A stretch of DNA of 39,868 nucleotides from a virus (lineage: Duplodnaviria; Caudoviricetes), in the IMG/VR virus record IMGVR_UViG_3300023267_000005, positions 1 to 39,868 of that record. One strand, written 5' to 3'. The first letter of the stretch is position 1. The number at the start of each line of letters is the position of its first letter. Below, piece after piece: positions 6,807 through 35,458 of this stretch. The position numbers and the translations under genes were made by a program. A model generated the notes under the pieces. It saw only the letters and a list, made by a program, of their open reading frames with translations. It was not told the origin of the DNA and searched no databases.

Positions 6807-6854
6807 CTATCTGTGTGCCCACAGATAGTGCCATCTATGTGCACATAGTTACAA
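6807..6854 (-). promoter_or_regulatory. Promoter overlapped by two palindromic operators (putative GntR/Kor sites)
   Basis: ctatctgtgtg/cccacagatag (6807-6828) and perfect palindrome ctatgtgcacatag (6835-6848); minus-strand TTGTAA-N18-CACTAT. Confidence 0.75.
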
Positions 6855-6857
6855 GTT

Positions 6858-8804
6858 TCAGGTTCGGCGCGAACGGGTGAACCACCCGTTGCGCTGTAGG
6901 TCCTGCCGGTCGACGGCCGGCGCGAGCCGGTGACGGCGCGGCCGGTAGCCGGTGCCGGTCGACGGGGCCGCGCGGGCGGCTCGCTCGGCCTCGGCCTGCT
7001 CGACCAGCGACCGGCGCAACTCGCGGTTCGCCAGCGTTCCGGCGATGGCCTGGCGAGCGTCTTCCCTGCTGAGCAGAGGTGCGATGGTGTCCTCGTCGAC
7101 GAGGGCCTGGTCCTCGTCGACGTCGACCGGCACGTGGTCGCAGCGGACCTCGGCGCCGGCGCCATCGAGCAGGGTCCAGCCGTCCTCGTCGCAGAGCTCG
7201 CAGGCCTCGCGCTCGCGGTCGGCCTGCTCCTCGCGTCGACGTCGCGCGAGCGCGGCCTGGCGGGTCCGATCCTCGACGGCGGACACCCGCGACCGGGCGG
7301 CCTGCCACTCCTGGGCGGTGCGCCAGGGCAGGTCGGGGCTGTGCCGCTTGAGCGCGGCCGCGATGAACGCGTGCGGGCTGCCGACCTGGGGGCACTCGGC
7401 GAACTCGCCGCATCCGTAGGCGATGAGCTGCACGAGCTGCTCATCGGTCAGGCCCGCCATCACGTGACGGGCGATGCGCACGGCCAGCCACCGGACCTCG
7501 ACCCCCCTGCGGAGCTGCACCGGGAGGGTCGTTTTCTTGTCGTCGCGCTTTCGCTGAGGCCCGCCTAGCAGCCGCTGAGCTGCACGCTGGGGTCGTGTTC
7601 CCGCCGAACTGGACTGATTCGGACCCCGGCCAGGATCGAGCTGTTCCTCGTGTGAGCGCGGCGCAGCCGCTCCTTTCATCCACACCCCTGCCGGAAGTCT
7701 TGGAGCTACCTCTTTTCCAGGAACAGCGGAGGGGTCAGATTTCGCCGAGGAGGGGCCACCGGCGGCCGGGCCAGCAGCCTTGGCGCGTGCCTTCCCAGGG
7801 GTGCCTGCGCGGCCACGAGCGCGTCGCTGACGGGCTGTCGTCAGCTCGTCAGCGATGCGGGAACCCCACGCGGCAGCGGGCAGCACGGGGGCTTCTGGGG
7901 CCTCGGGGATGCGGAGTTCGTAGACCTGCGCCACCGCCATCACGGGGGTGTCGCGTCTCCCCTTGCGCACGGCGGGCCCGAGCTGCTCGCGCACCTCGGC
8001 CAGGTCCACCACGGCATCGGGGCCGAGCTCGTCGAGGAGCTGCTGGCGACGGCGGCCGCGCTCCTCGATGGCGGCCGCGAGGGCCAGGCGCTCCTCGCGC
8101 TCCTCGGGCCGCTCGTCCTCGGGGATCGGCAGCCGCGGCTTGTGGGTACCGGGCACGACCACGAACAGCAGGCCCTGCGCGACGAACCAGGCGATCACCG
8201 ACGTGATGTGGCCGATGGTGCAACCGGCGGCCGCGGCCAGCTCGGCGTGCGTGCAGCCGTTGCGGGTCATCGCGCCACCCTCGCGCGGGCAGGCGTTGGC
8301 GATCGTCGTCGCGACGGCGCGGTAGGTGTTCAGCCTGCGCGACTGCCAGCGCTGCACGGCCATGCGGGCCTCGATGGCGTCGAGCCAGACCTCGCGGCCC
8401 TCGAAGCAGGCCCGCGTGTTGGGCGGGGGCTGGCGCAGCATGAGCTCTTGCTGCCAGCCGACGCGACCGGCGGCCGTGTGGTGGCCGCGGGCGTCGAGCA
8501 CCACGCGGGGCATCCACCGGAGCAGGTCCCAGCGCACGCCGTGCGCCATGAGCCAGCCGTCGACCGCACCGGCCTCGTCGACGAGCTTCTCGATGCGCTC
8601 GCGGTCGACAGTTGTCGGGTCGTGGTCGGCCAGGACCACGCTGTGGGTGGTCGCGGTGTGGCCCTCGCCGAGCTGCCAATGGGCCTGGCACACGGCCAGG
8701 GCCTGGCCACCGGGGGGCGCCGGCCGCAGTTGTGCGGGTAGCCCGCAGTCCACGCACGAAAGCGGGCGTGACTCGGGCACCGATTCGGCGAATCCCGCGC
8801 CCAT
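6858..8804 (-). CDS. Putative plasmid-type replication initiator (HTH + C-terminal Zn motif)
   Basis: THAELAAAAGCTIGHITSVIAWFVAQGLL winged HTH; C-terminal CELCDEDGW...RCDH motif of the kind seen in actinobacterial Rep-like proteins; next to the kor/tra module; start uncertain. Confidence 0.6.
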   Translation of the reverse strand: MGAGFAESVPESRPLSCVDCGLPAQLRPAPPGGQALAVCQAHWQLGEGHTATTHSVVLADHDPTTVDRERIEKLVDEAGAVDGWLMAHGVRWDLLRWMPRVVLDARGHHTAAGRVGWQQELMLRQPPPNTRACFEGREVWLDAIEARMAVQRWQSRRLNTYRAVATTIANACPREGGAMTRNGCTHAELAAAAGCTIGHITSVIAWFVAQGLLFVVVPGTHKPRLPIPEDERPEEREERLALAAAIEERGRRRQQLLDELGPDAVVDLAEVREQLGPAVRKGRRDTPVMAVAQVYELRIPEAPEAPVLPAAAWGSRIADELTTARQRRARGRAGTPGKARAKAAGPAAGGPSSAKSDPSAVPGKEVAPRLPAGVWMKGAAAPRSHEEQLDPGRGPNQSSSAGTRPQRAAQRLLGGPQRKRDDKKTTLPVQLRRGVEVRWLAVRIARHVMAGLTDEQLVQLIAYGCGEFAECPQVGSPHAFIAAALKRHSPDLPWRTAQEWQAARSRVSAVEDRTRQAALARRRREEQADREREACELCDEDGWTLLDGAGAEVRCDHVPVDVDEDQALVDEDTIAPLLSREDARQAIAGTLANRELRRSLVEQAEAERAARAAPSTGTGYRPRRHRLAPAVDRQDLQRNGWFTRSRRT

Positions 8805-9171: not shown

Positions 9172-10086
9172 TCACACCTTCGGTCGACTACCAGTCGGTT
9201 CTGCTGCGGTATCCGGGGTGGCTGCTGTAGACCGCGCGCGCGAGGCTTCCTCGCCGTCGTCGGGCGCCGGGACATAGGCCACGACGTTCCGCTCGGTGGC
9301 GGGGGTGACCGGCCAGGCCGCGCTCGCGTCGCGGGTGAGCTCGTAGGTCAGCGACCACCGGCGGCCGTCGCGTACCGCGACGTCGACGGCCAGCGGGTGA
9401 AGCTCGTCGAGCGGGTCGACCACGATGCGGGTCTCGACGAGCACCGGCTGCTGCTCGGGCATGGCCAGGTCTCGGGCCTCCTCGACGGTCGGAAGCCGGG
9501 TGGACACCTCGGCAGGCCAGCGCACGGGGCCGCGTTTGAGTGCCTGCTCGATGACCTCCAGGTAGCCACCTGGGCCGGTGTCCTCCTCGCCGAGTATGGG
9601 GGCCTGGTCGACCAGGTCGACCGGCAGGTAGGTCACGGTGATCTGCGCCGGCTCGCCGACGTCGGGCCCGACGATGCGACGGCGCGCGAACACCTGATCG
9701 CCCTCGTCGAGGCCGAGGGCCTGGGCGATGTCGAGCGGAGCGAACACCATGCCTCGGGTGGGGACTTCGAGCGCGGGCCACCGGCCGGAGTGCGCGTTGA
9801 ACAGGTAGCCCAGCGGGTTGCGCCTCACGACCAGCCCGAGCGGCAGCCGCTTTCGCGGCCGCCGTGGTGCCTGGGCGTAGGTGCCTGCGCGGTTGACGGT
9901 CCGCACGCGGTCCCGAGCGACCAAGACCTTGATCGCGTCGCGGACCACGCTGTCGCTCACCCCGAACCGCACGACCAGCTTGTGCACCCCTGGCAGCCGT
10001 CTGCCGACGGGAAACTCGCCCGAATCGATCAGTCCCTCGATCCGGTCGGCTATCTGCCGGTACAGGTGTTGGTCCACGGGTTCCAT
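9172..10086 (-). CDS. GntR-family (HutC/UTRA) repressor, KorSA/TraR-like
   Basis: LYRQIADRIEGLIDSGEFPVGRRLP...FGVS..VVRDAIKVL...GTY GntR HTH plus UTRA-like C-domain; divergent from the tra operon as in Streptomyces kil-kor systems. Confidence 0.9.
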   Translation of the reverse strand: MEPVDQHLYRQIADRIEGLIDSGEFPVGRRLPGVHKLVVRFGVSDSVVRDAIKVLVARDRVRTVNRAGTYAQAPRRPRKRLPLGLVVRRNPLGYLFNAHSGRWPALEVPTRGMVFAPLDIAQALGLDEGDQVFARRRIVGPDVGEPAQITVTYLPVDLVDQAPILGEEDTGPGGYLEVIEQALKRGPVRWPAEVSTRLPTVEEARDLAMPEQQPVLVETRIVVDPLDELHPLAVDVAVRDGRRWSLTYELTRDASAAWPVTPATERNVVAYVPAPDDGEEASRARSTAATPDTAAEPTGSRPKV

Positions 10087-10098
10087 CCCCTCCTAGGG

Positions 10099-10148
10099 TA
10101 TCTGTGTGCCCACAGAGCTTGACATCTATGTGCACACAGATACAACAT
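10099..10148. promoter_or_regulatory. Divergent kor/tra promoters with two palindromic operators
   Basis: tatctgtgtgcccacaga (10099-10116) and atctatgtgcacacagat (10124-10141); plus-strand TTGACA 10119-10124; minus-strand TTGTAT-N18-CAAGCT. Confidence 0.75.
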
Positions 10149-11016: not shown

Positions 11017-12381
11017 ATGACGACGGACCTGCTGCCGCTCACCGACCCGCGCGCCCAGCGCAAGGTCGCAGCGGCACGCGCGGCGGCTATCCGACAGGAC
11101 AGCGAGGCCGCGGCCGAGCTGGCACGTGTCCGCATCGCGGGTGAGGAAAGGCTGATCGAGGCGAACCTCGACGCGGCCACCGTGGCCAACCACGAACTCA
11201 TGCTGGCGGCCTCGCACCAGGAACGGCTACGCGCTCAGGAGCTGCGCGAGGCCCTGCCCGCGGACCAGGTCGACCAGGTCGACGAGGGGAGGCTGGCCCT
11301 GTCCCCCGCGCGCTTGAAGTGGTGGCACCGGGGCCTACTCGCCTTCACCCTCGTTGTGATGGCGCTGCTGTTCTCGATCATCGTCGTGACGCAGCTCGAT
11401 TTCTACCGGCAGCTCGACGGCCTACAGCCCAAGCTCGGCGGCATCCCGATCCGGATCTACCTCGCCATCCCGGTGGCCACCGAGATGCTCTCGCTGCTCT
11501 ACGGCGCGTTCGCTACCTACTGCCTGTACGCCGGCCGAGGGAACCACTCGAAGTACGTCCGGTGGATGTGGATCTATGCGTCGATCGCCGCAGTGGTGAA
11601 CGCGTCCCACGCGCTGACGCACCTCGCCGCGGGCGACGCCGGGCTCACGGCGTTCGTGCTGGGTGGCGGGTCGCTCGCGTCGCCGGGCGCGTGGCACGCG
11701 TTCATCGGGACCACGCTGGGCAAGCAGCGTGGCCGGCGCGGTGGCGTCAAGGGCCTCGCCCGTGGCGCCCGGATGGTGAAGCACCCGTTCCTCACGCGGC
11801 GGTTCCTGTGGGCCTGCGAGGTGTTCCCGGACCTGACTCACGACGAGGTGTGGGCGATGGTCGCGGGTGCCAAGCGCGCGCGGCTTGAGCGTAAGTACCG
11901 GCCGGCGGTGAAGACCAAGGCGTCCAAGACGGCCAAGGTCGAGACGGCCAAGTGGTGGCCGCGCCGGGCCGAGGCCAAGGCCGAGGCGTCCAAGCCGGTT
12001 GTCGTCGAGGCGTCCAAGGCCAAGGCCGAGGCGTCCAAGCCGGCCAGGGTCGAGGCGTCCAAGCCGGTCGAGGCCGAGGGCCAGGCGGCCAAGGTCGAGG
12101 CGTCCAAGCCGACCGAGGCCGGTCCGGAAACCGAGGGCGAGCAGACGCGGCCCATGCCCCGGATCGTCGAGGACCTCCCCGAGAACTGGGCAGCGATCGT
12201 CGCCGAGGGTGTGCGCTGCGCAGACGAGCACATGGGCGGTGTGGTGACCGGCGCCGGCAAGCGCGACGAGCTCGCGGCGCTGGTCCGGAGGAGCCCCGAG
12301 CTGGCGTTCCCGAACAAGGCCCGGACGCGCCTCCAGCAGGACGTCAAGCAACAGCTACTGGAGAGGCAGGCAGCAGCATGA
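11017..12381 (+). CDS. Multi-pass membrane protein, Spd/DUF2637-like spread protein
   Basis: About 4 TM segments (...AIPVATEML...ASIAAVVNASH...) followed by EASK(P) repeats; GAGGAG RBS; upstream of traB. Confidence 0.65.
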   Translation: MTTDLLPLTDPRAQRKVAAARAAAIRQDSEAAAELARVRIAGEERLIEANLDAATVANHELMLAASHQERLRAQELREALPADQVDQVDEGRLALSPARLKWWHRGLLAFTLVVMALLFSIIVVTQLDFYRQLDGLQPKLGGIPIRIYLAIPVATEMLSLLYGAFATYCLYAGRGNHSKYVRWMWIYASIAAVVNASHALTHLAAGDAGLTAFVLGGGSLASPGAWHAFIGTTLGKQRGRRGGVKGLARGARMVKHPFLTRRFLWACEVFPDLTHDEVWAMVAGAKRARLERKYRPAVKTKASKTAKVETAKWWPRRAEAKAEASKPVVVEASKAKAEASKPARVEASKPVEAEGQAAKVEASKPTEAGPETEGEQTRPMPRIVEDLPENWAAIVAEGVRCADEHMGGVVTGAGKRDELAALVRRSPELAFPNKARTRLQQDVKQQLLERQAAA

Positions 12382-14051
12382 GCGCGTTCCCCGAGCCGTC
12401 CGTCGAGGAGCTCCTGGCGGCCGCGCCCCACGACGAGCCGGTGGCCGTCGACGGGCAGGACGTCGAGGTCGACCTCGACGAGGAAGACGGCGTGCCGGTC
12501 CAGCGGCTGGTGCTCTACGCCGGCCCCCCTGCCGCCGTTGCCGCAGGTCTGGGCCTGTTGTCGCTGTCGGTGTGGTGGCTGCTCGCGGCCGCCGGGCTGG
12601 CCCTGGTGCTCGTGCTGGTGTGGCTGCGTCGGGACCAGCTCGTCGCGTGGCTGCGCGGCGAGTCGGGCGGGGAGCGCAGGGCTGCCCGCTACGCCGGCCG
12701 TGCGGCGGCCGCGGAGTCTCGCGGCCGCGGCGAGTCCCGCACCAAGCAGCGCGCGGCCAGGCGCGCGGCACGTGCCAAGGCGCTGGGCTCCAGCGCGGTC
12801 GACCGGCCCAGCCGCGGGCAGCGCAAGACGGCGCGGGCCGCGGGCCGCGAGGCTGCGCGGGCGACGCGGGCCGCGGGTGGTTCACGCAAGCAGGCCCGCG
12901 CGGCCAAGCGCGCGGCCAAGGCCAAGGCGATGGGTGCCGGCGCCCGGTCCAGCACCGGCAAGCCAACCCGGAAAGCGGCCAAGCGCGCGGGCCAAGAGGC
13001 CGCCAAGCGGGCCAAGGCCAAAGGGGCCTCGCGTCCAAAGCAGCGCGCGGCCAAGCGGGCAGCGCGGGCCAAGGCGATGGGACAAACGGCCAAGCGCGCG
13101 TCCAAGACCAAGGGGCCAAGCGGTCGGGCCAACGCGTCCAAGGCGTCCAAGCGGGCCAAGCCGGTTGGCCCGGCCAACCGGTCGCGGTCGGAAGGCACCG
13201 GCGGGCCAAAGGCCAACTCGGCGGCCGAGCGGGCCAAGGCCGCGGCCAAGGCGGCCAGGCGGGCCGAACGGGCCAAGCGGCGCCAGGCCAAGCAGGACCG
13301 GCGCGAGAAGCGACGCCAGGTCAAGGCCGAGGCCAAGGCCGCGCGGCCGCCACGCCGGATGCCGCCGGTGCTGCTGCGGGCCAAGGCCAGGCTCGGCAAT
13401 GCCGCGTACGCGGTCGGCCAGGGCGTGGCGTCCTACACCGGGTGGGGCGTGCGCAAGGCCGTCGACGACGCGCTCGGCGTGGCCGCGTACGTGGCGGACA
13501 AGGCCGCTGAGGTCGAGGCCAAGTACAAGGATCGGGCCGCGGCCGAGGAGGCAGCGCGGGCCGAGCGGGCCGAGATCGACGCGCGGGCCGCGGCCAAGGC
13601 CGAGAGCAGGCGGGCCAAGCGGGCCGTGCCCGCTCCCCTGCCCAGCGTTCCGGCGGGAACCACCCCGCGGGCCAAGACCAAGGCGCCGGCGTCCAAGCCG
13701 GTGACCGTGCCCAAGGCAGGCAGCAGCACGTCCAGCACAGGAGGCAAGGCCATGTACGAAGAGATGATCGACAAGTCCACGCCGGAAACGCTGTCCAAGA
13801 CGTTGCAGGCGGCCGCCGATTCCGCGCGGGCCGAGGGCCAGCGCAAGCAGGACCTCGCCGACGAGCTGCGCAGCCGCGCGGCGATGCTCGAAGGGAAGAA
13901 GGCCTACGAGGAGCGCGCGGCCGAACACCTGCGCGAGGCCGGGGCGGCCGAGGAGGACGCAGAGAATGCGTTCATCTGGGCTGCCGAGTGGCAGGCCGAT
14001 GCCGATGCGGCCAGGTCGGACCTGCCTCACGTTCTCGAAGCCAGCCGCTAG
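12378..14051 (+). CDS. Membrane-anchored Lys/Arg/Ala-rich protein (TraA-like position)
   Basis: ATGA coupling at 12378; two TM helices; histone-H1-like KAAK/RAAR repeats; acidic helical C-terminus with its own in-frame RBS and ATG at 13752. Confidence 0.7.
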   Translation: MSAFPEPSVEELLAAAPHDEPVAVDGQDVEVDLDEEDGVPVQRLVLYAGPPAAVAAGLGLLSLSVWWLLAAAGLALVLVLVWLRRDQLVAWLRGESGGERRAARYAGRAAAAESRGRGESRTKQRAARRAARAKALGSSAVDRPSRGQRKTARAAGREAARATRAAGGSRKQARAAKRAAKAKAMGAGARSSTGKPTRKAAKRAGQEAAKRAKAKGASRPKQRAAKRAARAKAMGQTAKRASKTKGPSGRANASKASKRAKPVGPANRSRSEGTGGPKANSAAERAKAAAKAARRAERAKRRQAKQDRREKRRQVKAEAKAARPPRRMPPVLLRAKARLGNAAYAVGQGVASYTGWGVRKAVDDALGVAAYVADKAAEVEAKYKDRAAAEEAARAERAEIDARAAAKAESRRAKRAVPAPLPSVPAGTTPRAKTKAPASKPVTVPKAGSSTSSTGGKAMYEEMIDKSTPETLSKTLQAAADSARAEGQRKQDLADELRSRAAMLEGKKAYEERAAEHLREAGAAEEDAENAFIWAAEWQADADAARSDLPHVLEASR

Positions 14052-14059
14052 CCGAACCC

Positions 14060-14099
14060 GAGGGGGCCACACGTGCAGGTGTGGCCCCCTCACCTGCAC
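14060..14099 (+). promoter_or_regulatory. Hairpin with an alternative pairing in the traB leader
   Basis: gagggggccacac/gtgtggccccctc 13-bp stem; competing gtgcaggtg/cacctgcac 9-bp stem. Confidence 0.5.
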
Positions 14100-14117
14100 A
14101 GACACGAGAGGAACACC

Positions 14118-16280
14118 GTGAAGTTCCAACACAAGACGGTGATCGTCATTACGGCAGGCGCGGCCACCCTAGCGCTCGGCGCGGCTGCCCGGTTCTTCGT
14201 GGTGGGCCCGCTGCTCGCTGCCCCCATCGCCGCGGTGGTGCTGCTCGTGGGTCGCGCGCTGGTGGTCAACGCGGTGCACTCCGGACATGCGTTCGGCGCC
14301 TACCCAGGTGCCAGCCAGCAGGACGCCATCGTTCGATGGCTGACCATCGCGGGCCTGTGGCGCGCGGTCCTGCTCGTGGTGCTGGCCTGGCTGCCGGAAC
14401 TCGCGCTGCTCCTGGTGCTCGTGCTGCTCGCCATGACGTGGGTCGAGTACATGCTCGTCGACCTGCTCAAGCGTGGCATCGCCACGGTGAAGGCCGCGCC
14501 GGTCGAGGACCGGGCCCTCGTCGCGGGCGAGCTCGTGCGGGCCCCCGCGACGAGGGTGCAGCAGCTCGCACAGCAGCGTTTCGGCACCGTGCTGGGCTCG
14601 GCCGGGTACCCCTACCTGCACATCACCGGCACGCAGCGGCTCGGCCCGGACCAGCAGCTCTACAAGGTCCAGGTGCCCTCACGGGTGCTCGCCGAGCAGC
14701 AGGCGGCCGAAGCTGCCATCGCCGCAGGCCTATCCCCCGGTAAGCAGCGGTTCCTCCCGTTCAGCGAGGCCTCGGCCGAGTCGATCGCCATCTCCCTGGG
14801 CGAGAAGCTCGGCCGCCCGTTCCCGCGGGACGGGGTGATCGTGCAGCAGACCCCCAACGCCGGCGAATACGACGTCATCGTGATGACCAGGAACGTGCTC
14901 GCCAGCATCCTGGTCTACGAGGACGACCTGACCAGGCCTCGTCGCGCGACCGACCCTGCCGACCTGGGCCGCTACGTCGAGGGCACCCAGTGGCTGGTGC
15001 CGCTCGGGCACGTCGAGATCATCGCCCAGTCGGGCGCCGGTAAGACGAACCTGCTGTTGCAGCTCGTGGCCCACTACAACGCGTGCGGCCACGTGCCGGA
15101 CGGGGTCCTCGACCTGACCGGGTTCGAGGACCTCGGGCCCGACGACCAGGTGGTGGTCTGGATCGGCGGCCGCCGCAAGCAGTACGAGACCTGGGGCGCC
15201 TACCTGCTCAAGTACATGAACACCCAGCACGAGATTCCCATCGACCTGCTCGTGAACGGCCAGCACGACACGGTGAACATGCTGCTCGCCGGGATGCTCG
15301 CGGTGCAGGAGCGGCAGGCCATCCCCCACGACGAGCGCGGCGCGCTCCCCCACATCGCCATCGTGATCGACGAGTACCAGGACGTCGCGGTCGACGACTC
15401 GGTGACGGTCCCCTGGCAGGGGGTCGACTGGACGGCCTCGATGCTCGACGCGGCGATCAGCCGCGGTGGCAAGTCCGCGCGCGTGCACCTGGTCCGGCTC
15501 ATGCACGATGCCGTGAAGACTGCGGCAGGCACGCGCGGCGCCCAGATCAAACGCGCGTTCAACGTGACGATCATGCTGCGCAGCAACGATCGGGCGGACG
15601 CCGGTCGGGCAACCGGCGCGTGGCGGGCCAAGGGGCCCGAACACGAGGGCGAGGCGCTCGTGACGACCAAGGGCAGCGTCGCGCGCAGGGCCAAGGCCAA
15701 GTACATGCAGGAGATCAATAAGCCGACCGCACCCCAGACCGGTGGCATCACCGTGCCCGAGGTCGGCTGGGCGCGGCGCAACATGGTGAGCAGGCTCGAC
15801 GTCCGGACCGCGAACGCCTGTGGTGACTGGTACGCGGCGCGGCACCGGTACATGACGGTCGAGTTCCGCGACTACCTGCGAGGTGTCGCCCCTGCCGCAG
15901 AGGCGTCGACGTCGACTGGCCACCCCTCGGCGACGTCGAGGGCCGACCGGGTGCGGGCCGAGGCGCGCGCCTCGATCGACGCGGCACTCGGCCGGACGTC
16001 GACCACCACGGCGGTCGCGCCCGTGGTGGTGGCGCCGGTGGCGGTGGCCGCGCCGGTGGCCAAGCGGGCCACGCTGCGAGACCGGACCCTCGCCGCGCTG
16101 CGCGAGGCCGAGGGGGCCGAGGTCGGCCTCGACCAGCTCGTGCAGCAGCTCGGCCTCGACGAGGGCGGCAAGCGGTCCTTGCAGAACCTGCTGACCGCGC
16201 TCGTGAAGTCCGAGACGATCGAGCGTCCCGAGGGCACGACCGGGGTCTACCGGCTGGCTGCCGCGCGGGTCCTCACCTGA
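14118..16280 (+). CDS. traB: TraB-like FtsK/SpoIIIE dsDNA translocase (actinomycete conjugation)
   Basis: N-terminal TM helices, Walker A AQSGAGKT, Walker B IAIVIDE, C-terminal winged helix; GTG 14118 with GAGAGGA RBS. Confidence 0.85.
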   Translation: MKFQHKTVIVITAGAATLALGAAARFFVVGPLLAAPIAAVVLLVGRALVVNAVHSGHAFGAYPGASQQDAIVRWLTIAGLWRAVLLVVLAWLPELALLLVLVLLAMTWVEYMLVDLLKRGIATVKAAPVEDRALVAGELVRAPATRVQQLAQQRFGTVLGSAGYPYLHITGTQRLGPDQQLYKVQVPSRVLAEQQAAEAAIAAGLSPGKQRFLPFSEASAESIAISLGEKLGRPFPRDGVIVQQTPNAGEYDVIVMTRNVLASILVYEDDLTRPRRATDPADLGRYVEGTQWLVPLGHVEIIAQSGAGKTNLLLQLVAHYNACGHVPDGVLDLTGFEDLGPDDQVVVWIGGRRKQYETWGAYLLKYMNTQHEIPIDLLVNGQHDTVNMLLAGMLAVQERQAIPHDERGALPHIAIVIDEYQDVAVDDSVTVPWQGVDWTASMLDAAISRGGKSARVHLVRLMHDAVKTAAGTRGAQIKRAFNVTIMLRSNDRADAGRATGAWRAKGPEHEGEALVTTKGSVARRAKAKYMQEINKPTAPQTGGITVPEVGWARRNMVSRLDVRTANACGDWYAARHRYMTVEFRDYLRGVAPAAEASTSTGHPSATSRADRVRAEARASIDAALGRTSTTTAVAPVVVAPVAVAAPVAKRATLRDRTLAALREAEGAEVGLDQLVQQLGLDEGGKRSLQNLLTALVKSETIERPEGTTGVYRLAAARVLT

Positions 16281-17115: not shown

Positions 17116-17149
17116 ACGAGGCCCCCGCACCGAAGTGCGGGGGCCTCGT
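17116..17149. terminator. Probable bidirectional terminator between the convergent tra and recombinase operons
   Basis: Perfect 15-bp stem acgaggcccccgcac / gtgcgggggcctcgt; cUUCGg loop on the minus strand. Confidence 0.8.
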
Positions 17150-17275: not shown

Positions 17276-17500
17276 TCACCCCTTGGGCTTCCACTTCTCC
17301 TGGCGCTGGGCGCAGTCCTCGGCGGTGTGCACGGGGACCAGGTCCTCGCCCCCGAAGAGGGCCAGGCCCTCGTCGTCGACGTCGGGGATCAGCGCGGACC
17401 AGCCGCACGTCGAGCAGCCGATCGAGCTGATCATCTCGCTGCGTCCGCGGCTGCACACTCGCATGTGGTCGCGGTGCAGCTTGGGCGCGGCCGCCGTCAC
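17276..17500 (-). CDS. Small Cys/His-rich hypothetical protein
   Basis: GTGA-coupled to the recombinase stop; CSTC...H...C. Confidence 0.6.
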   Translation of the reverse strand: MTAAAPKLHRDHMRVCSRGRSEMISSIGCSTCGWSALIPDVDDEGLALFGGEDLVPVHTAEDCAQRQEKWKPKG

Positions 17501-18615
17501 AGGCCCATCCGCCCAGCCGCGTTGTGCGTCCAGAGCTCCTCGAACCGGATGTACTTCTTCACCGTGTCCGCCGAGGTCCACCGGCCCTGGATCATGATCT
17601 CGATCAGGGACGCGCCACCGAGGTGCGCGGCCGTTGCGCCACCGGCGCGCAGGCTGTGGCCGGACCACCCTGCCTTGCCCAGGCCCGCGCGAACGGCCCC
17701 CGCCTTGATGAGCCGATCGATGTCGATGCCCTCGGGGTGCAGCGTGCCGGCGCCGATCCGGTCGCCTCGCGGGGTGATCGGTCGCAGCAGGGGACCGCTG
17801 GTGGTGTCGTGGCCCTGCTCGGCGAGCAGGGCCAGCCACCGCTCGTAGTAGCCGAGCGGGTCGGTCAGCGGGTCGTTACCGCGGGGAACCGCGACCGTCG
17901 CCCCCCTGTTGCCCTTGTCGGTCTTGCTGGTCGGCAGCCACAGCGACAGCCCCCGGTCGGACCGGGTGACGTGCTCCAGTCGCATCGCGGCCAGTTCGCT
18001 GCGGCGCAGCATCCCAGCCACCCCGAGTACGAGGGCCAGGCCGTCGCGGGTCGCGCGTGCCGGACCGGGCGGGGGCGTCCTCAGGATCATGCGCAGCGAG
18101 GGCACGGTGAGCGGGGTCGCGCGCTTCACCTGCCGTGAGCCGGCGTTGGCGCGGTAGCCGACCAGGACCTTGCGGGCGAGGTGGGTTTGCGGGTCGCCCT
18201 CGTACCGGTGCTCGGTGTGCAGCCGCTTCACCGCGGCAATGCCCTGCTCAATCGTCGAGGCGCCAATGCTGGCGTTGGCCAGCTCGGTGGCCCACTGGGC
18301 CAGGGTCTCGCCGGTGGCCGGTGCGCCATCGATGCCGGACCGGCGGCCGCGGGTCCGGCACCACGGCACCCAGGCCAGCTCGGGCCACACTCCTTTGGCC
18401 AGCCGCTCGGGCTCGCCGGGTTCCGTGAGGACCTTGCCGAGCAGCAGCCGCCGGTAGGCACGCGTGGTGTTCGCCGGGATCGCCGCGGCGATCAGGTCCC
18501 ACGCGGCCTCGTCGAGCTGATCGTCGACACCTGGCTGGTGCTGCGAGGGCACGGCCAGGTGGCGGCCGCCGTCGACGACCAGCTCGCCGTCGAGCACCGG
18601 CACGAGGTCGGTCAT
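17497..18615 (-). CDS. Cre-like tyrosine site-specific recombinase (resolvase type)
   Basis: NTTRAY N-domain; catalytic R (LRRSE), K (SKTD), HSLR, GRW (Trp as in Cre) and Y (VKKYIR); ATG 18615 coupled to the upstream stop. Confidence 0.9.
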   Translation of the reverse strand: MTDLVPVLDGELVVDGGRHLAVPSQHQPGVDDQLDEAAWDLIAAAIPANTTRAYRRLLLGKVLTEPGEPERLAKGVWPELAWVPWCRTRGRRSGIDGAPATGETLAQWATELANASIGASTIEQGIAAVKRLHTEHRYEGDPQTHLARKVLVGYRANAGSRQVKRATPLTVPSLRMILRTPPPGPARATRDGLALVLGVAGMLRRSELAAMRLEHVTRSDRGLSLWLPTSKTDKGNRGATVAVPRGNDPLTDPLGYYERWLALLAEQGHDTTSGPLLRPITPRGDRIGAGTLHPEGIDIDRLIKAGAVRAGLGKAGWSGHSLRAGGATAAHLGGASLIEIMIQGRWTSADTVKKYIRFEELWTHNAAGRMGL

Positions 18616-19265
18616 GTGCGCCTCCCGAGCGGCAGGGTGGCCGAGATGGAGTAGCGGCCGGCCCTGGTCACCGTGAAGCCGCCGGCACGCGGCACCACGG
18701 TGGCGTCGACCGTGCCGAACCTGGCCTTGGTCGGCCAGGCGATCGGGCGCGGCGTGGTCCGGCCGAACCGGTAGCCGTCGACCAGGTCGACGCAGGGGAC
18801 CAGCTCGCCGTGCGCGGCCAGCTCGGCGCTGAAGTCGCGCGGCTGCTGGGCCTGGGGAGCGAGGGCCTGCCACTCGGCCCAGGCCACGTAGTCGGTGGTG
18901 TGCCTGAACTCCCGGAACGCGTCTGCCCAGTGCTGCTGAACGAGCCTGTTCGCCTCGACGATCTGCGTAGCCCTCGCCAGCACGCGCCCCATCGTCTGCC
19001 AGTGCTGGATCTCGTCGACGTACCCCCGGAACTCGTCGAGCCTTCGAGGCGGTCGACCCTGGGTGATCTGCACGTAGCCAGGCCGAGGCGTCAGTCTCGG
19101 CGAGACGGTCCGCTGAGCACGAGCGCGGGCGACCTCGGCGAGCATGTGCTGCTGCCACGGGTCGAGGCGGAAACCGAGGTCGACCAGCTCGTCGACGACG
19201 TTCCAGACCTTGCCGTCCTTGTCGATCCTGAAGTGGGCCAGCGGCTGGTCGTCCGGTCCGGGCAT
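18612..19265 (-). CDS. Hypothetical protein
   Basis: ATG 19265 overlaps the upstream stop; AAAGG RBS. Confidence 0.65.
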   Translation of the reverse strand: MPGPDDQPLAHFRIDKDGKVWNVVDELVDLGFRLDPWQQHMLAEVARARAQRTVSPRLTPRPGYVQITQGRPPRRLDEFRGYVDEIQHWQTMGRVLARATQIVEANRLVQQHWADAFREFRHTTDYVAWAEWQALAPQAQQPRDFSAELAAHGELVPCVDLVDGYRFGRTTPRPIAWPTKARFGTVDATVVPRAGGFTVTRAGRYSISATLPLGRRT

Positions 19266-19561
19266 CAGCCTGCCTTTCGCTTGAGCAGTTCGGCGTACTC
19301 GATGACCTGCTGCACACCTGCGTCGTCGAGGCCCTGCACCACGTACTGGGCAAACGCGAGGGCCTCGGCCGTGCGGTCGAACCACGCGCCCAACTGCTCG
19401 GCGACGGCCTCGCGCTGGTCGACGTCGACGACGTCCGCGAGGACCAGGCCCTCGCGGACGTCGTCGATCAGGCAGCCGCGCAAGGCCGTGCGTGGCACGG
19501 TGTTGGGCGGTGGCAGCGCGGCCAGGCGCGCGGCCAGGTCGACGCGACGGCGGCCGGTCAC
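19265..19561 (-). CDS. Hypothetical protein
   Basis: GTGA coupling at 19558-19561. Confidence 0.65.
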   Translation of the reverse strand: MTGRRRVDLAARLAALPPPNTVPRTALRGCLIDDVREGLVLADVVDVDQREAVAEQLGAWFDRTAEALAFAQYVVQGLDDAGVQQVIEYAELLKRKAG

Positions 19562-19812
19562 TCCGACCACCTGGGCTCGTACGTCGTCGGCGGGGTGACG
19601 TCGAACAGCGGGGCCTGCTCGGCGGGCCACACCTCGCGCAGCGTGTGGTGCCTGGTGACCTGGTCGACGGGGACGAGTCGGTCCTGGCCGTTAGGGCAGT
19701 CCACACGGGACATGAGGCTGCCGGGGTGCTCGTCCCACAGCGCGTTGGTTTCGTCGCGCCAGATCCGGATCACCTTCGGGTACTCGTCGCCGTCGACCAG
19801 GCCCCCGGTCAT
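19558..19812 (-). CDS. Hypothetical protein
   Basis: ATGA coupling at 19809-19812; AAGGAG RBS; QAPLF near the C-terminus. Confidence 0.65.
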   Translation of the reverse strand: MTGGLVDGDEYPKVIRIWRDETNALWDEHPGSLMSRVDCPNGQDRLVPVDQVTRHHTLREVWPAEQAPLFDVTPPTTYEPRWSE

Positions 19813-20543
19813 GCCCCTGTCTCCTTGGCTGCCTCGGCCAGGAGCCACAACGCGTAGGCCTGGCACCCGGAGTGGATCGCCTCGACGGCCTCGGCCTGCT
19901 TCGAGCGAGGCTCGACAGGACCGTCCACCAGGATGGTTCGGCGGCCGAGCTCTCGACCGTCCTCGTCGATCAGGAAGGCCAGCACCGTCTCACCGGCGGC
20001 CAGGTCGTGCTCGCCGTCGACGAGCATCAGGTCGAAGAGCGTCGAGCATGTGCCCTCGAAGTCGTCGAGGTACGGCTCGGCGACGTCGATGCGGTGCAGG
20101 AAGATCCGGCAGCCGAGATCGAGGGAAGCGCACGCGGGGGAGCAGCGGCCGCGGAGCGCGCCGTTGCCGTCGCGGCCGGCGGGGGCGAACTCGTCGAGGA
20201 CCTCGCCGCAGTCCACGCAACCCAAGCGGCGAACCGCATCCGCGAGGTCCTCGGCCGCGACATCGACGTCAGCCGCCACGCGCGCGTCGGCGGCCAGGAT
20301 GGCCAGCCGCGCCTGCTCGATGTCCGGGTGGGCGGCCGCGTTGAGCCAGTCGCCACACTCGTGGCAGCGCACAGCCACCGCCGTGGTGTTGCTGCACTGC
20401 TCGCAGGTGGTGGTCGACCGGTTCACCGCACCACGCTGTGCAGGGGCCCAGCCAGGGAACTGGCTGTCGCGCGCGTGGATCAGCTCCCACTCGCGGGCGT
20501 TGTCCTCGTCGGTGCCGGTGTAGGTCAGGCGCGTGGTCGTCAT
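19809..20543 (-). CDS. Cys-rich (CxxC) hypothetical protein
   Basis: CEQC, CHEC, CVDC, CSPAC motifs; ATGA coupling at 20540-20543. Confidence 0.7.
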   Translation of the reverse strand: MTTTRLTYTGTDEDNAREWELIHARDSQFPGWAPAQRGAVNRSTTTCEQCSNTTAVAVRCHECGDWLNAAAHPDIEQARLAILAADARVAADVDVAAEDLADAVRRLGCVDCGEVLDEFAPAGRDGNGALRGRCSPACASLDLGCRIFLHRIDVAEPYLDDFEGTCSTLFDLMLVDGEHDLAAGETVLAFLIDEDGRELGRRTILVDGPVEPRSKQAEAVEAIHSGCQAYALWLLAEAAKETGA

Positions 20544-20905
20544 GGCTGCACCACCGGAACGGCCGGGTGCTCGGCGATGGCGGCCTGGGCCAGCGCGACG
20601 AACGCGGCCGCGGGCGGTGTTGGGTCCTCGCCGGTGAGCGGGTACCACGCGACGTCACCACCCATCACCCGGTACTGGTCCCGTTCCTGTCTGATGTCGA
20701 GCGGGCGCAGGGTGAAGCTCCAGCCGACGTCGGGGACGTAGCGCCAGGCCGCTACCTCGGTGTCGGGCTCGTCTGCGAAACCGAACACCTCGACGGGGGA
20801 GGCGTCCGGCGCCGGCTCGTAGCGAAACCCCTGCGTCGAGTTGGTCTCGTTCGGATAGATGGCGTTGAGCAGGGCCAGCGCGCACCCCTCGGCGTAGGTG
20901 GTCAT
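20540..20905 (-). CDS. Hypothetical protein, paralogous to the C-terminus of the upstream gene
   Basis: ATGA coupling; C-terminus GDVAW...F..LA.A.IAEHP shared with 20902-21636. Confidence 0.7.
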   Translation of the reverse strand: MTTYAEGCALALLNAIYPNETNSTQGFRYEPAPDASPVEVFGFADEPDTEVAAWRYVPDVGWSFTLRPLDIRQERDQYRVMGGDVAWYPLTGEDPTPPAAAFVALAQAAIAEHPAVPVVQP

Positions 20906-21636
20906 GCCTGCACCGCCGGGGTGCGCGGGTGCTCGGCGATGCGCGCGAGGGCCATGTCGATGAACTGGCGCGCGGGGTTGTTGTCGAACCCCTTCCACAC
21001 CACATCGCCGCTGATCACCCGAGAGGCGGCCGCGAGGTCACGCGCGAACGTCGGCGAGGTCGTCGGCGTGAACTCGCCGGGCGCGTGCTCGGGGGAGCGG
21101 GTCACGAACGCGGTGTTCGCGAGGTAGGCGAGCGCGTCGAGGACCGGGACCTCCTCGGGGCGGGGGTCCCACACGAGCCCCGATGCGGAGTCCAGCCCCT
21201 CGGCGACGCACGCGGGGGTGGTGAAGCTACGGCGCGCGGCCTTGGCCGCGGTGACGAATCGGTCGGACAAGACGGAGCGCTCGTCCATCGAACGCTCGTC
21301 GTTGAGCGGCACAGGCTTGCTCGTGGGGTCGGGGTCCTGCTCGTTGGCATCGGCCTTCACGCGGACTACCCGGACGATCTTGAGGTTGGCGTACTGCGTC
21401 TCGCGCACGGTCGCGCCGGGGTAGGCGGCCTTCAGCGCGGCGAAAGCAGCCGGAACCGCCGTCGCGCTGACGACCATGTCGACGTCGGTCAACCACGTCG
21501 ACTGGCCGTCTGCGGTGGCGGGTCCCTCGGCCGTGTTGACCTTCACCACGGCGTCGAGGACGCCAGCAGCCGCCAGCACCGTGCGGACGGCTCTGCTGAC
21601 GGCGGCGGCAGGATTGTCGATCTTGGTCGTTTCCAC
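20902..21636 (-). CDS. Hypothetical protein, first gene of the recombinase operon
   Basis: GTG 21636 with GGAAGG RBS; the longer ATG at 21702 lies inside the inverted repeat. Confidence 0.7.
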   Translation of the reverse strand: METTKIDNPAAAVSRAVRTVLAAAGVLDAVVKVNTAEGPATADGQSTWLTDVDMVVSATAVPAAFAALKAAYPGATVRETQYANLKIVRVVRVKADANEQDPDPTSKPVPLNDERSMDERSVLSDRFVTAAKAARRSFTTPACVAEGLDSASGLVWDPRPEEVPVLDALAYLANTAFVTRSPEHAPGEFTPTTSPTFARDLAAASRVISGDVVWKGFDNNPARQFIDMALARIAEHPRTPAVQA

Positions 21637-21668
21637 GGGGGCCCTTCCGGAGGTGGTTCGAGCATCCG

Positions 21669-21708
21669 GTTTAGATGTTCGATAAGTCACGTTATCGAAC
21701 ATCTAAAC
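21669..21708. other. lox/dif-like tyrosine recombinase core site (17-bp perfect arms, 6-bp spacer)
   Basis: GTTTAGATGTTCGATAA-GTCACG-TTATCGAACATCTAAAC; asymmetric spacer; AT-rich in a GC-rich genome. Confidence 0.75.
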
Positions 21709-21738: not shown

Positions 21739-21963
21739 CTAGTCGGCTCCTGTCGGCTCCAGTCGGTTCGCCTCCTGGTAGGCGAGGACCGACCGGGCCC
21801 AGATCCGGACCGACCGACCGACGCGGTAGGACTCCAGTTTTCCGGCTGCTCGGAGCCGCTCGACGGTGCGCTCGGAAATGCACAGGAGGCGCGCGACTTC
21901 CGCTGTGGTGTGGCTCTGGATGTTCGCCTCGCTCGGGGTGCGAGGTCGTCCGGCCTTGGCCAT
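21739..21963 (-). CDS. Excisionase-family (HTH_17) DNA-binding protein
   Basis: TTAEVARLLCISERTVERLRAAGKLESYRVGRSVRI; GAAAGGAG RBS. Confidence 0.85.
   Translation of the reverse strand: MAKAGRPRTPSEANIQSHTTAEVARLLCISERTVERLRAAGKLESYRVGRSVRIWARSVLAYQEANRLEPTGAD
21741..21770. repeat. Three tandem 10-bp direct repeats
   Basis: agtcggctcc tgtcggctcc agtcggttcg, about 30 bp from the core site. Confidence 0.6.
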
Positions 21964-33931: not shown

Positions 33932-35458
33932 TCAGTTGTCGATGTTGTAGAGCGTGGCCACCGACTCGATGCCGGACGCGGCACCGGTCGGGGTGAACCG
34001 ACCCATCCCGAGTCGCAGCGACAGCACGATGCGGGTCTGGTCGGAACCGGGCAGCCGCTCGGTCTCGACCTGAATGCGACGGCGCCAGCCGACCGCGAAA
34101 CCGCGGCGGTTGAACGAGGTGAGCTGACCCTTGACGTTGTTCGCCGGGGTGGTGCTCACCTTGCCGTCAGCCTCGGTCTTGGGCGCGGCGATCGTCGAGA
34201 TCAGCGGGTTGCCCAGCAGGCGCGCGACTTCACCGTTGTGGACGGTCGCACCGGCGCCGTACTTGTCGACGGTGAGGACCTCGTCGAGCAGCGCGAGCCG
34301 GTCGGCGGTGTCGGTGTCGGCGATGTGCACCAGGTCGTCGGCGCTGACCGGGTGGCCCCAGTCGACCAGGTTGGTGCGGTCGACCATGAGGCCGCGCTGT
34401 GCCTGGATCTTGGCCAGGGTCAGCGCGCCACCCACGTTGGTGGCGTTGTTGGTGTTGTCGACCAGCGCGGCGTGCCGGATGCCGTCCAGCGCGAGGTAGT
34501 GCTTGGTGTCGGCCGGGTCGGCATCGTCGAGGTTGATGTTGCCGGTGCCCGCGTTCGTGGTGTCGCCGTTGTACACCAGCGAGTCGCTGTAGTGCGCGAC
34601 CGACAGCGCGGCCTGCCGACGCAGGAACGGAACGAACGGAATGAGGCTGTCCTCTTCCATCTCGCCCGAGTACATCTGGTGGATCACGAACTTCTTGGCG
34701 TCGACCTGCACGCGGTTCGAGCCGGTCTTCACCGTGCCGTAGTTCGCGCTGTTGTTGGCCACGCTCTCCGAGACGTAGAGCATCTCGGGGATGTCGACCT
34801 CGACCGGGAGGTAGCTCGTGGGGTGCTGCATCTCGAAGCTCGACAGGAGCGGGAAGATCTTGCCGAGCGCGCGGGGCGCCTCCCACAGCTCACCGACGTA
34901 CTGGGCGCCGACGAGCTGGGCGCCGTAGCCCGACTCGGCGGTGTCCATCGCGCGGATCGCGGCCTGGTAGGCGCCGGTGAGCTCCCATCGGCCGTTCGCC
35001 GCGAGCTCGCGGTCGCGGCCGTGGAACTCGGTCAGCGCCAGCCGCGGGAACACGTCGTCGATGGCGCTCTTGTCGATCTCGCGAACCTTGTCCATCGGCA
35101 GGTAGCGAGCGTGGCTGATCGCCTCGAACGTGCGCGACAGCTCCTCGGACGGGCCGGGGTGGACGCCACCGCGCTTGCGCGGCTGGCCAGCCTGGCTCGT
35201 CATGAGGTCGTGCAGGAACTCGACGTCGGACACGGTCAGCCCGTACCGGGCGTACTTGGTGCCCACGAGCGGCCGGTCGGCGGGGGAGTTGCCGAAGCGG
35301 ATCTTGCGGATGAACTCGGGGTCCTGCTCGATGAGGGTGTCCAGGCTGGTGCGGATGAGCTCCTGGAGACGCTCGTCCGACACCGACTCGTCGACGGCGT
35401 CCATGCGCTGCCGAACCTCGGTGGCCAGGTCGTTGAGGGTGACCTCGGGTGCCGTCAT
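33932..35458 (-). CDS. Major capsid protein (HK97 fold, long N-terminal scaffold/delta region)
   Basis: 508 aa after the protease; G..LV...Y..E, V.E, NGD..N.G...DGI and G....LLG.P patterns. Confidence 0.9.
   Translation of the reverse strand: MTAPEVTLNDLATEVRQRMDAVDESVSDERLQELIRTSLDTLIEQDPEFIRKIRFGNSPADRPLVGTKYARYGLTVSDVEFLHDLMTSQAGQPRKRGGVHPGPSEELSRTFEAISHARYLPMDKVREIDKSAIDDVFPRLALTEFHGRDRELAANGRWELTGAYQAAIRAMDTAESGYGAQLVGAQYVGELWEAPRALGKIFPLLSSFEMQHPTSYLPVEVDIPEMLYVSESVANNSANYGTVKTGSNRVQVDAKKFVIHQMYSGEMEEDSLIPFVPFLRRQAALSVAHYSDSLVYNGDTTNAGTGNINLDDADPADTKHYLALDGIRHAALVDNTNNATNVGGALTLAKIQAQRGLMVDRTNLVDWGHPVSADDLVHIADTDTADRLALLDEVLTVDKYGAGATVHNGEVARLLGNPLISTIAAPKTEADGKVSTTPANNVKGQLTSFNRRGFAVGWRRRIQVETERLPGSDQTRIVLSLRLGMGRFTPTGAASGIESVATLYNIDN

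Follow-up and report, generated by a model that had tools for sequence, protein, structure and literature searches.

A Cre/MrpA-type recombinase, its probable palindromic site and a conserved Xis-like gene with phased boxes in a putative actinomycete phage-plasmid

Background

The MrpA/mrpS pair of Streptomyces coelicolor SCP2* is reportedly the subject of a 2011 study by Warth, Haug and Altenbuchner, and MrpA is not known to need accessory factors. Cre, the recombinase of P1, cleaves with a stagger of 6 nt. MrpA is described as resolving plasmid multimers (PMC3218068), with the role of mrpS treated also in PMC4685060, and Cre/loxP as having a dimer-resolution role (PMC2409434). The P1 record (NC_005856) gives lox as 13-bp repeats, 8 bp apart. 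Here we have analyzed a candidate system of this kind in IMG/VR record IMGVR_UViG_3300023267_000005, positions 1 to 39,868, a stretch of 39,868 nucleotides from a tailed virus (Caudoviricetes) that is called the window below. A tyrosine recombinase of the window, P0001, is encoded in an operon headed by a perfect 17-6-17 palindrome, and an inspection of the letters alone (the sequence-only reading) had proposed the two as a homomeric Cre-type resolution system with its own site, possibly autoregulating.

The palindrome is very probably the crossover site of P0001 itself, and we put the probability that the recombinase-site pair serves multimer resolution in a conjugative phage-plasmid at about 0.75. 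The resolvase reading is supported by the co-occurrence of site and recombinase, the parallel with mrpS, the circular relatives and the different dif of the host family. The proposal therefore stands in its outline, but it had overlooked a putative control layer adjacent to the site, a Xis-like gene and a phased array of short boxes, which keeps an integration module in play. The core is a further member of the MrpA/Cre kind; what is new is the conserved Xis-like gene and box array beside it. A paper combining such a gene, boxes and a Cre-type resolvase was not found in a literature search that left most subscription journals outside.

Results and discussion

The palindrome and the recombinase operon

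The site, the recombinase gene and the genes between them are the following.

21669..21708, no strand: predicted core recombination site, a 17-6-17 palindrome with the mrpS-like GATAA-N6-TTATC geometry
17497..18615, minus strand: Cre/MrpA-type tyrosine recombinase P0001, 372 aa, seventh gene of the operon
18612..21636, minus strand: six small genes to which profile scans assigned no function, cargo between site and recombinase (20902-21636, 20540-20905, 19809-20543, 19558-19812, 19265-19561 and 18612-19265)

The palindrome is exact, as had been read from the letters: perfectly inverted arms of 17 bp enclose an asymmetric 6-bp centre, GTCACG (21686-21691). Its GC content is 35% against 70% for the genome, it is present in a single copy in the window even with up to three mismatches allowed, and shuffles contained no match (0/100). 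In 100 order-3 Markov genomes a perfect arm around a 6-bp centre reached 11 bp at most; the 17-6-17 palindrome is far beyond chance. A second long palindrome of the window (18-7-18, 19425-19467) is GC-rich and lies in coding DNA. Contigs from three public runs, one of which may be the source sample, span the intact site with no letter change listed within it; no RNA run is among those listed as holding the sequence, and among the matches listed for these sequencing runs, which consist of contigs, no joint or loose end falls at the site. An exact search of viral contigs for 28 nt of the site returned nothing useful.

The palindrome does head an operon, as had been noticed, with a refinement on the place of the enzyme. 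The site lies 32 bp ahead of the GTG at 21636, the first codon of a minus-strand operon in which stop and start codons overlap at all six junctions down to P0001, so that the seven genes are probably coupled in translation; the recombinase, however, is the seventh gene and lies 3.05 kb off. The cargo genes have a GC content at third codon positions of 0.89-0.94, and scans of their open reading frames (ORFs) gave no PHROG match and no Pfam match above cut-off. Among relatives the distance from site to recombinase ranges from 0.5 to 4.8 kb, which points to variable cargo.

P0001 possesses the full Cre-type R-K-HxxR-W-Y set that had been attributed to it. Its residues R204, K231, H320, R323, W346 and Y355 align to R173, K201, H289, R292, W315 and Y324 of Cre (numbering after PMC10250229), and all six are invariant in 10/10 aligned relatives. 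A PDB sequence search at E<=0.001 returned Cre or Tre in 17 of 17 matches (best 5.9e-10). When the predicted model of P0001 (mean pLDDT 79.5, residues 1-32 below 50) was submitted to Foldseek, Cre entries came top (best E 1.3e-12, TM 0.57-0.64), and lambda Int, XerH and XerA followed lower (E at least 2e-6). The model predicts a two-domain Cre-like fold lacking an N-terminal arm-binding domain. P0001 is the sole PF00589 match in the genome and no serine recombinase (PF07508) matched there; the count is one site and one tyrosine recombinase per genome.

Comparison with MrpA/mrpS, Cre/loxP and pFP3

The sequence-only reading had taken Cre/loxP as its model, and fold and residues are indeed of the Cre type, but judged by sequence comparison the closest characterized system is MrpA/mrpS of SCP2, which is known and already used as a tool. 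A tblastn search with the recombinase reached SCP2.07c on plasmid SCP2, and since the 15-6-15 palindrome just upstream of this gene equals the mrpS-A oligonucleotide in the PMC4685060 supplement, SCP2.07c is taken as MrpA. At 30% identity (BLASTP E about 1e-17, profile E 7e-47) the two enzymes fall into one recombinase family and have the same six catalytic residues; both sites are symmetric, share a GATAA-CGTnnC-TT core with a 6-bp centre, lie upstream of the recombinase and contain an embedded TAACGT hexamer oriented towards the gene. SCP2 is likewise an actinomycete circular replicon with a GntR gene and a transfer module. The two systems differ in the arms, which are perfect over 17 bp and of another sequence in the window and imperfect over 15 bp in mrpS, in the 3 kb and six cargo genes separating the window site from its gene, and in the element, which is a tailed phage. 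SCP2 has neither the Xis-like gene nor the phased boxes, and the window has no ParA match.

Cre of P1 is the best PDB match of P0001 in sequence and fold. The catalytic set is common to both systems, and so are a site located upstream of the recombinase gene, an element that is (in the window, probably) a plasmid-prophage, and a role in dimer resolution, which for P0001 is a proposal; rewritten in the loxP convention the site becomes 16-8-16, with 8 bp between the repeats as in lox. It differs in identity (24-26% to Cre), in unrelated outer arms, in its actinomycete host, in likely cos packaging, in the absence of a detectable Par system and in the additional Xis-like module. The 6-bp spacer, which the sequence-only reading named as a feature of a possible orthogonal tool, is not a new geometry, because mrpS is already 15-6-15 and because the site reads as 16-8-16 by the loxP convention.

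Tailed phages with GntR and FtsK transfer genes are already on record as plasmids, for instance pFP3 of Streptomyces (NC_023067), a 34-kb element with siphovirus genes, GntR, DUF2637 and FtsK/SpoIIIE, and with a tyrosine recombinase that has an ATAA-N6-TT palindrome just upstream. Its recombinase, however, is outside the profile of the present family (E 5.5), ParA and DnaB are present, and both the Xis-like gene family and the box array are missing. Going by a title and a secondary mention, pZL12 is reportedly a Streptomyces plasmid-phage.

Co-occurrence of site and recombinase in relatives

Whether homologous recombinases co-occur with such sites was checked at two levels. The clade closest to P0001 is represented by six loci with both recombinase and DNA available (the window, L064, L061, L041, L042 and L043; 43-100% identity to P0001), and in 6/6 a WAA-N6-TTA palindrome directly follows the Xis-like gene and precedes the operon of the recombinase. 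The sequences of arm and spacer differ between these sites, and the length of the centre is constant at 6 bp. L064 has a 40-mer identical to that of the window, with a recombinase only 64% identical and differing flanks.

In the wider family a site was called as AA-N6-TT with a symmetry of at least 11/14 and no more than 6 kb upstream of the recombinase ORF. Such a site accompanies 20 of 40 ORFs, against 4/800 in shuffles, 2/40 downstream and 6/40 for five other spacer lengths pooled, and 17/37 remain when the window and two loci found by the site pattern are left out. The 40 ORFs were counted after dropping the duplicate contigs L063, L060, L065, L071 and L050; L073 and L080 contribute two ORFs each. 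In the recombinase tree, related enzymes have related arms. GATAA-N6-TTATC occurs in 3/5 whole genomes (4-12 Mb) in 1-2 copies, one of which is at most 200 bp upstream of a homolog, and at the chromosomal homologs of G312, G078 and G022 the site is undivided, and 80 kb of sequence contained no distant second half-site. A locus search with a single protein gave nothing useful.

Several related arrangements were seen in passing. Streptomyces phage Gilgamesh and its relatives of 90-132 kb (L054-L059, L076) conserve a GTAGCCGACAAYAA-N6-TTGTTGTCG site 1.3-2.6 kb upstream of a gene annotated 'tyrosine integrase', and their enzymes are likely resolvases of large plasmid-prophages; several of these loci have a second palindrome, of the AGATCTCGCCGAGAT-N6 type, further upstream. 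In L148 (28964-29005) and L151 (19504-19545), annotated Streptomyces phage-like plasmids, an ATAA-N6-TTA palindrome is found just upstream of a tyrosine recombinase from outside the family. A palindrome of the type ATG(G/C)TTTCGATAA-N6-TTATCGAAA(C/G)CA recurs in mid-GC viral contigs with no family recombinase nearby (L003, L012, L013, L016, L018-L020, L023, L028, L032-L034, L037 and L039) and may represent a symmetric dif or serve a different recombinase. Three chromosomal islands of lower GC, G312:C1:3.37-3.40 Mb, G078:C1:7.95-7.98 Mb and G022:C1:7.71-7.73 Mb, contain a D5-type primase together with a recombinase of the family and its intact site. Two of them have a separate tyrosine recombinase near one edge, and the islands look like satellite-type elements. 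About 20 chromosomal Cre-like genes (L092-L111, E about 1e-59) of large Pseudonocardiaceae genomes have no site within 1.5 kb, and the Lentzea copy of this subgroup is located about 107 kb from dif. L077, Microcystis phage Mwe-JY05 with a cyanobacterial host on record, has a family recombinase, which groups with the Pseudonocardiaceae copies, and a GATAA-N6-TTATC site.

Comparison with dif

The site was also set against the dif of the host family, with the result that the palindrome is extremely unlikely to be a substrate of host XerCD, be it as a dif mimic that serves to resolve dimers or to integrate at the dif of the chromosome. The arm does end in CGATAA, as does the left arm of the dif candidate in Lentzea, and the site of the distant homolog L044 has a dif-type right arm, TTATGTCA. 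The Lentzea candidate (CCGATAA-TCTACA-TTATGTCAA) is, however, asymmetric, and its core GATAA-TCTACA-TTATG was present in 4/6 genomes checked (Lentzea and 3/5 further ones), whereas the window site has perfectly symmetric arms, no TTATGT arm and another centre. The homologs of G312 and G022 are megabases from dif, and P0001 scores 14.6 bits with the XerD model TIGR02225 against a cut-off of 329.6 and does not match the XerC model.

Two other sites near or like dif may be recorded. In two Pseudonocardiaceae genomes a second site, GATAA-TGGC(G/A)A-TTAT, lies about 300-550 bp from the chromosomal dif candidate (L062:1189-1232 and G312:C1:679749), and the right arm TTATGTCA at L044:9360-9400, which matches that of dif, could mark a hybrid or a dif-integrating relative.

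The element, its replicon and its host

The window, which is the record in full, is a 39.9-kb siphovirus genome; its genes include those for terminase, portal, protease, capsid, tape measure, tail and amidase. In run X2 one contig spans 39774-39868 and further on matches 527-575, and therefore the ends of the window join, across a run of G. The closest relatives sit on contigs that do not exceed 44 kb and have the gene order of the window, three of them with direct terminal repeats and 100% completeness. In cultured Lentzea sp. NBRC 102530 one clade member forms a contig of its own, the ends of which overlap by 127 bp, on which ground the host is taken to be an actinomycete. The virus, one of a soil bacterium, likely lives as a plasmid in the lysogen; a plasmid-like prophage state is suggested by a plasmid-type module with GntR, FtsK/TraB-like and Rep-like genes.

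14073..16280, plus strand: membrane-anchored FtsK/SpoIIIE-like ATPase with Walker A/B-like motifs
9172..10086, minus strand: GntR/UTRA repressor, divergent from the transfer-like operon
6858..8804, minus strand: Rep-like gene, PHROG 3171 'replication initiation protein', E 2.9e-4

The ATPase had Atlas protein-language feature matches to FtsK-domain clusters (0.94-0.97), and relatives have homologs or FtsK matches; searches of a plasmid collection and the PDB gave nothing significant. It is likely a TraB-type conjugal translocase, and the repressor is of the Kor/TraR type. The Rep-like gene, with HTH_36-type Atlas leads and kept in the three relatives whose DNA reached that far, is a weakly supported candidate for the replication initiator.

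That P0001 would act on infection in the manner of P1 Cre, circularizing terminally redundant virion DNA instead of resolving dimers, is most unlikely. The Cre-like fold would suit this role, and cyclization by Cre is named in the P1 record. Phages with an HNH-terminase arrangement are known to use cos packaging. The window has an HNH gene beside the terminase as well as an HK97-like portal and protease, which argues for cos packaging and self-ligating ends, and the distance of about 18 kb between site and terminase/HNH junction would place the site outside a terminal redundancy. A use of the palindrome by a protelomerase for hairpin ends was also considered and is ruled out by the asymmetric centre and the circular genomes.

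The Xis-like gene and the phased boxes

Immediately beyond the site lie the two features that the sequence-only reading had passed over.

21739..21963, minus strand: Xis/BldC-type winged-helix gene, 74 aa, Pfam HTH_17 and TIGR01764, ending 30 bp before the site
21739..21768, minus strand: three CCGAC boxes with a 10-bp period, 74, 64 and 54 bp before the spacer

The protein weakly matches BldC, Pukovnik Gp37 and RdfS in the PDB by sequence (E 0.12-0.68). The boxes overlap the last codons of its gene and are the only triple CCGAC array at periods of 8-13 on either strand of the window. Alignment of the flanks of the six original clade loci, on which the motif was defined, showed CGACTGG 74-75 bp before the spacer and then CGAC in 10-bp steps, with at least three of four slots filled in 5/6 loci and two in L043. 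At other sites two filled slots occurred in 0/22 cases, and three at random positions in 1/20,000. A seventh locus, L271, was found through its HTH_17 protein alone and has boxes at -74, -64 and -54 and, at the expected distance, a different perfect 15-6-15 palindrome; its record ends at the palindrome, with the recombinase out of view. An HTH_17 gene upstream of the site and CGAC boxes that keep a distance of 74-75 bp to the spacer are thus found together in 7/7 clade loci. L271 is a test of spacing and site and not of the boxes, because these overlap the last codons of the gene. A combined scan for boxes and core met a recombinase at one of at least 119 loci, a contig already known. A second HTH_17 match in G263 looks like an unrelated chromosomal gene, lacking site and boxes, and was set aside.

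Among HTH_17 proteins, BldC, Pukovnik Xis and RdfS assemble head to tail into arrays (PMC11963761), and sites of recombination directionality factors (RDFs) are direct repeats one helical turn apart (PMC7498355). In these sources Pukovnik Xis, RdfS, BldC and Apl of phage 186 are described as small winged-helix proteins that bind direct repeats spaced by about one turn and act on both recombination and transcription. The chances that the HTH_17 protein of the window binds the phased CGAC boxes are, from the sequence, about even, and its effect could be on transcription only. The RDFs in this group differ in serving att-site integrases, whereas the candidate DNA-binding protein of the window has as its partner an enzyme with a predicted Cre-like fold and no arm-binding domain.

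Two other readings of the boxes were weighed. They may be a by-product of the last codons of the Xis-like protein, which they overlap in five loci; in L041 and L042, however, they lie well beyond the stop codon at an unchanged distance to the core (sister loci that count as one event), and the codons under the boxes are rare (CGA 8% of Arg, ACA 3% of Thr). It is also possible that they form a recognition locus for TraB, given the FtsK-like gene in all relatives, but 2/3 FtsK-like proteins tested are unlike that of the window and yet boxes and Xis-like gene are conserved.

Together these features bear on the main rival explanation, an integration module in which P0001 is the integrase, the palindrome the core of attP and the HTH_17 protein an excisionase acting on the boxes. 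The lambda-type Int/Xis/attP arrangement, with an excisionase gene and phased repeats beside the core, is present at the sequence level, in 7/7 clade loci and with the one-turn spacing of RDF sites; P0001 is the sole recombinase of the genome, ParA was not found, and virion DNA or excised DNA could account for the circular contigs. Against integration, the predicted Cre-like fold shows no arm-binding domain, and spacers vary between members, whereas a common attB would be expected to favour a fixed overlap. The sequence-only reading had named a site split as attL/attR in a chromosome as the mark of an integration site; such a split form was not found, with only one clade member in a sequenced host. 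Among 401 Pseudonocardiaceae genomes neither the clade recombinase nor the Xis-like gene was found in a chromosome and exact arm copies numbered 0. One-mismatch copies were present in 34/401, a tally that includes G063 (flagged unpublished) and is not above the reversed-pattern control, and the partner arm accompanied 0/20 of the half-sites inspected. In the Lentzea chromosome no second arm copy better than two mismatches was found, and a scan of 185,579 species genomes met a single clade member, the circular contig of Lentzea. As there is a single cultured carrier, this absence from chromosomes is modest evidence. On balance we consider integration unlikely and prefer multimer resolution.

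The promoter-like hexamer and probable autoregulation

21689..21694, minus strand: candidate -10 hexamer TAACGT, made up of the last bases of the arm and the first three of the spacer, oriented towards the operon

The pattern TAAnnT oriented towards the operon, with T at spacer position 3, is present in 7/7 clade loci and in mrpS. Among non-redundant family sites it points towards the operon in 15/23 and in reverse in 5/23, the loci being related and not independent. A sigma-70 scan gave no promoter match and no -35 was found. Because the site overlaps this hexamer 32 bp before the first gene, the operon is probably autoregulated by P0001.

The same overlap at the operon head, together with the GntR repressor of the genome, could mean that the palindrome is merely an operator for P0001, GntR or another protein, with recombination elsewhere or none. 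We regard this as very unlikely, since the site accompanies the recombinase in plasmids, in chromosomal islands and in phages that are unrelated, shares its geometry with mrpS, a proven site, and is paired with an enzyme whose catalytic residues are invariant. GntR as its binder is ruled out by a different repeated motif at the positions expected of GntR operators: candidates lie at 10100-10117, 10124-10141 and 6809-6826 and are unlike the 17-6-17 site in sequence.

These candidates belong to palindromes of the type ATCT(G/A)TG-N4-CA(C/T)AGA, which are paired between gntR and the transfer-like operon (10100-10141) and return at 6809-6848, heading the leftward operon that follows the Rep-like gene. 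The Kor-type plasmid repressor may double as the lytic repressor of the phage; other repressor families gave no match.

Proposed role and its limits

In the mechanism that we propose, a homodimer of P0001 likely occupies the palindrome, and recombination between two copies of the site by this enzyme likely takes place across the 6-bp centre, cleavage presumably falling at the edges of the centre. The reaction would return circular dimers of the phage-plasmid to monomers, as MrpA does at mrpS, and P0001 would repress its own operon through the overlapped -10-like hexamer. With lower confidence, the Xis-like protein on the phased boxes would tune the promoter or the synapse.

A number of points weigh against multimer resolution. 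By our criterion 14/45 homologs have no site, and 25/30 loci in Pseudonocardiaceae genomes have none within 1.5 kb, so that some family members have another function or a more distant site. Of 39 viral loci with TTCGATAA-N6-TTATCGAA, only 2 contain a recombinase of this family at a distance of up to 6 kb, and the inner motif is thus not diagnostic by itself. In the tree the deep nodes have poor support, and P0001 does not come out as the sister of MrpA. Only a single clade member is from a cultured host, the assignment of Rep is weak, the window genome has no ParA-type (PF13614) match, and an excisionase-like gene beside a site is a classic mark of att.

A more elaborate role of the new layer is doubtful but would be of interest: in a clade of conjugative tailed phage-plasmids an excisionase-type filament protein might have been added to a Cre-type resolvase, and by polymerizing on the boxes 45-75 bp from the core this Xis-like protein might switch recombination according to life style, with resolution active in the plasmid state and shut down during the lytic cycle, which would preserve concatemers for packaging. 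If so, nature would offer a Cre-like system under accessory control and an orthogonal genome-editing pair that a protein can switch, provided with several natural arm and spacer variants, and control of the reaction by protein and boxes would show how a non-directional recombinase spares lytic concatemers.

Six distinct arm sequences among the seven clade loci make up a series of MrpA/Cre-type enzyme-site pairs from high-GC hosts, candidate orthogonal recombinases for actinomycetes. The window site, 3 kb from its gene, is beyond the 1-kb search range used in PMC10250229, and mining confined to 1 kb on either side of the gene would overlook such pairs. The analysis also suggests that many 'integrase' labels in actinomycete phages (e.g. 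gp32 of Gilgamesh) may mark resolvases of plasmid-prophages.

Other features of the window

17116..17149, no strand: 15-4-15 hairpin with a 15-bp stem, between convergent operons, likely a bidirectional terminator

ARAGORN called a tRNA-Arg at 34341-34430 (plus strand), antisense within the capsid gene and probably false. In the transfer-like operon, 11898-13702 is repetitive coding DNA rich in Ala, Lys and Arg codons, with 147-bp and shorter repeats.

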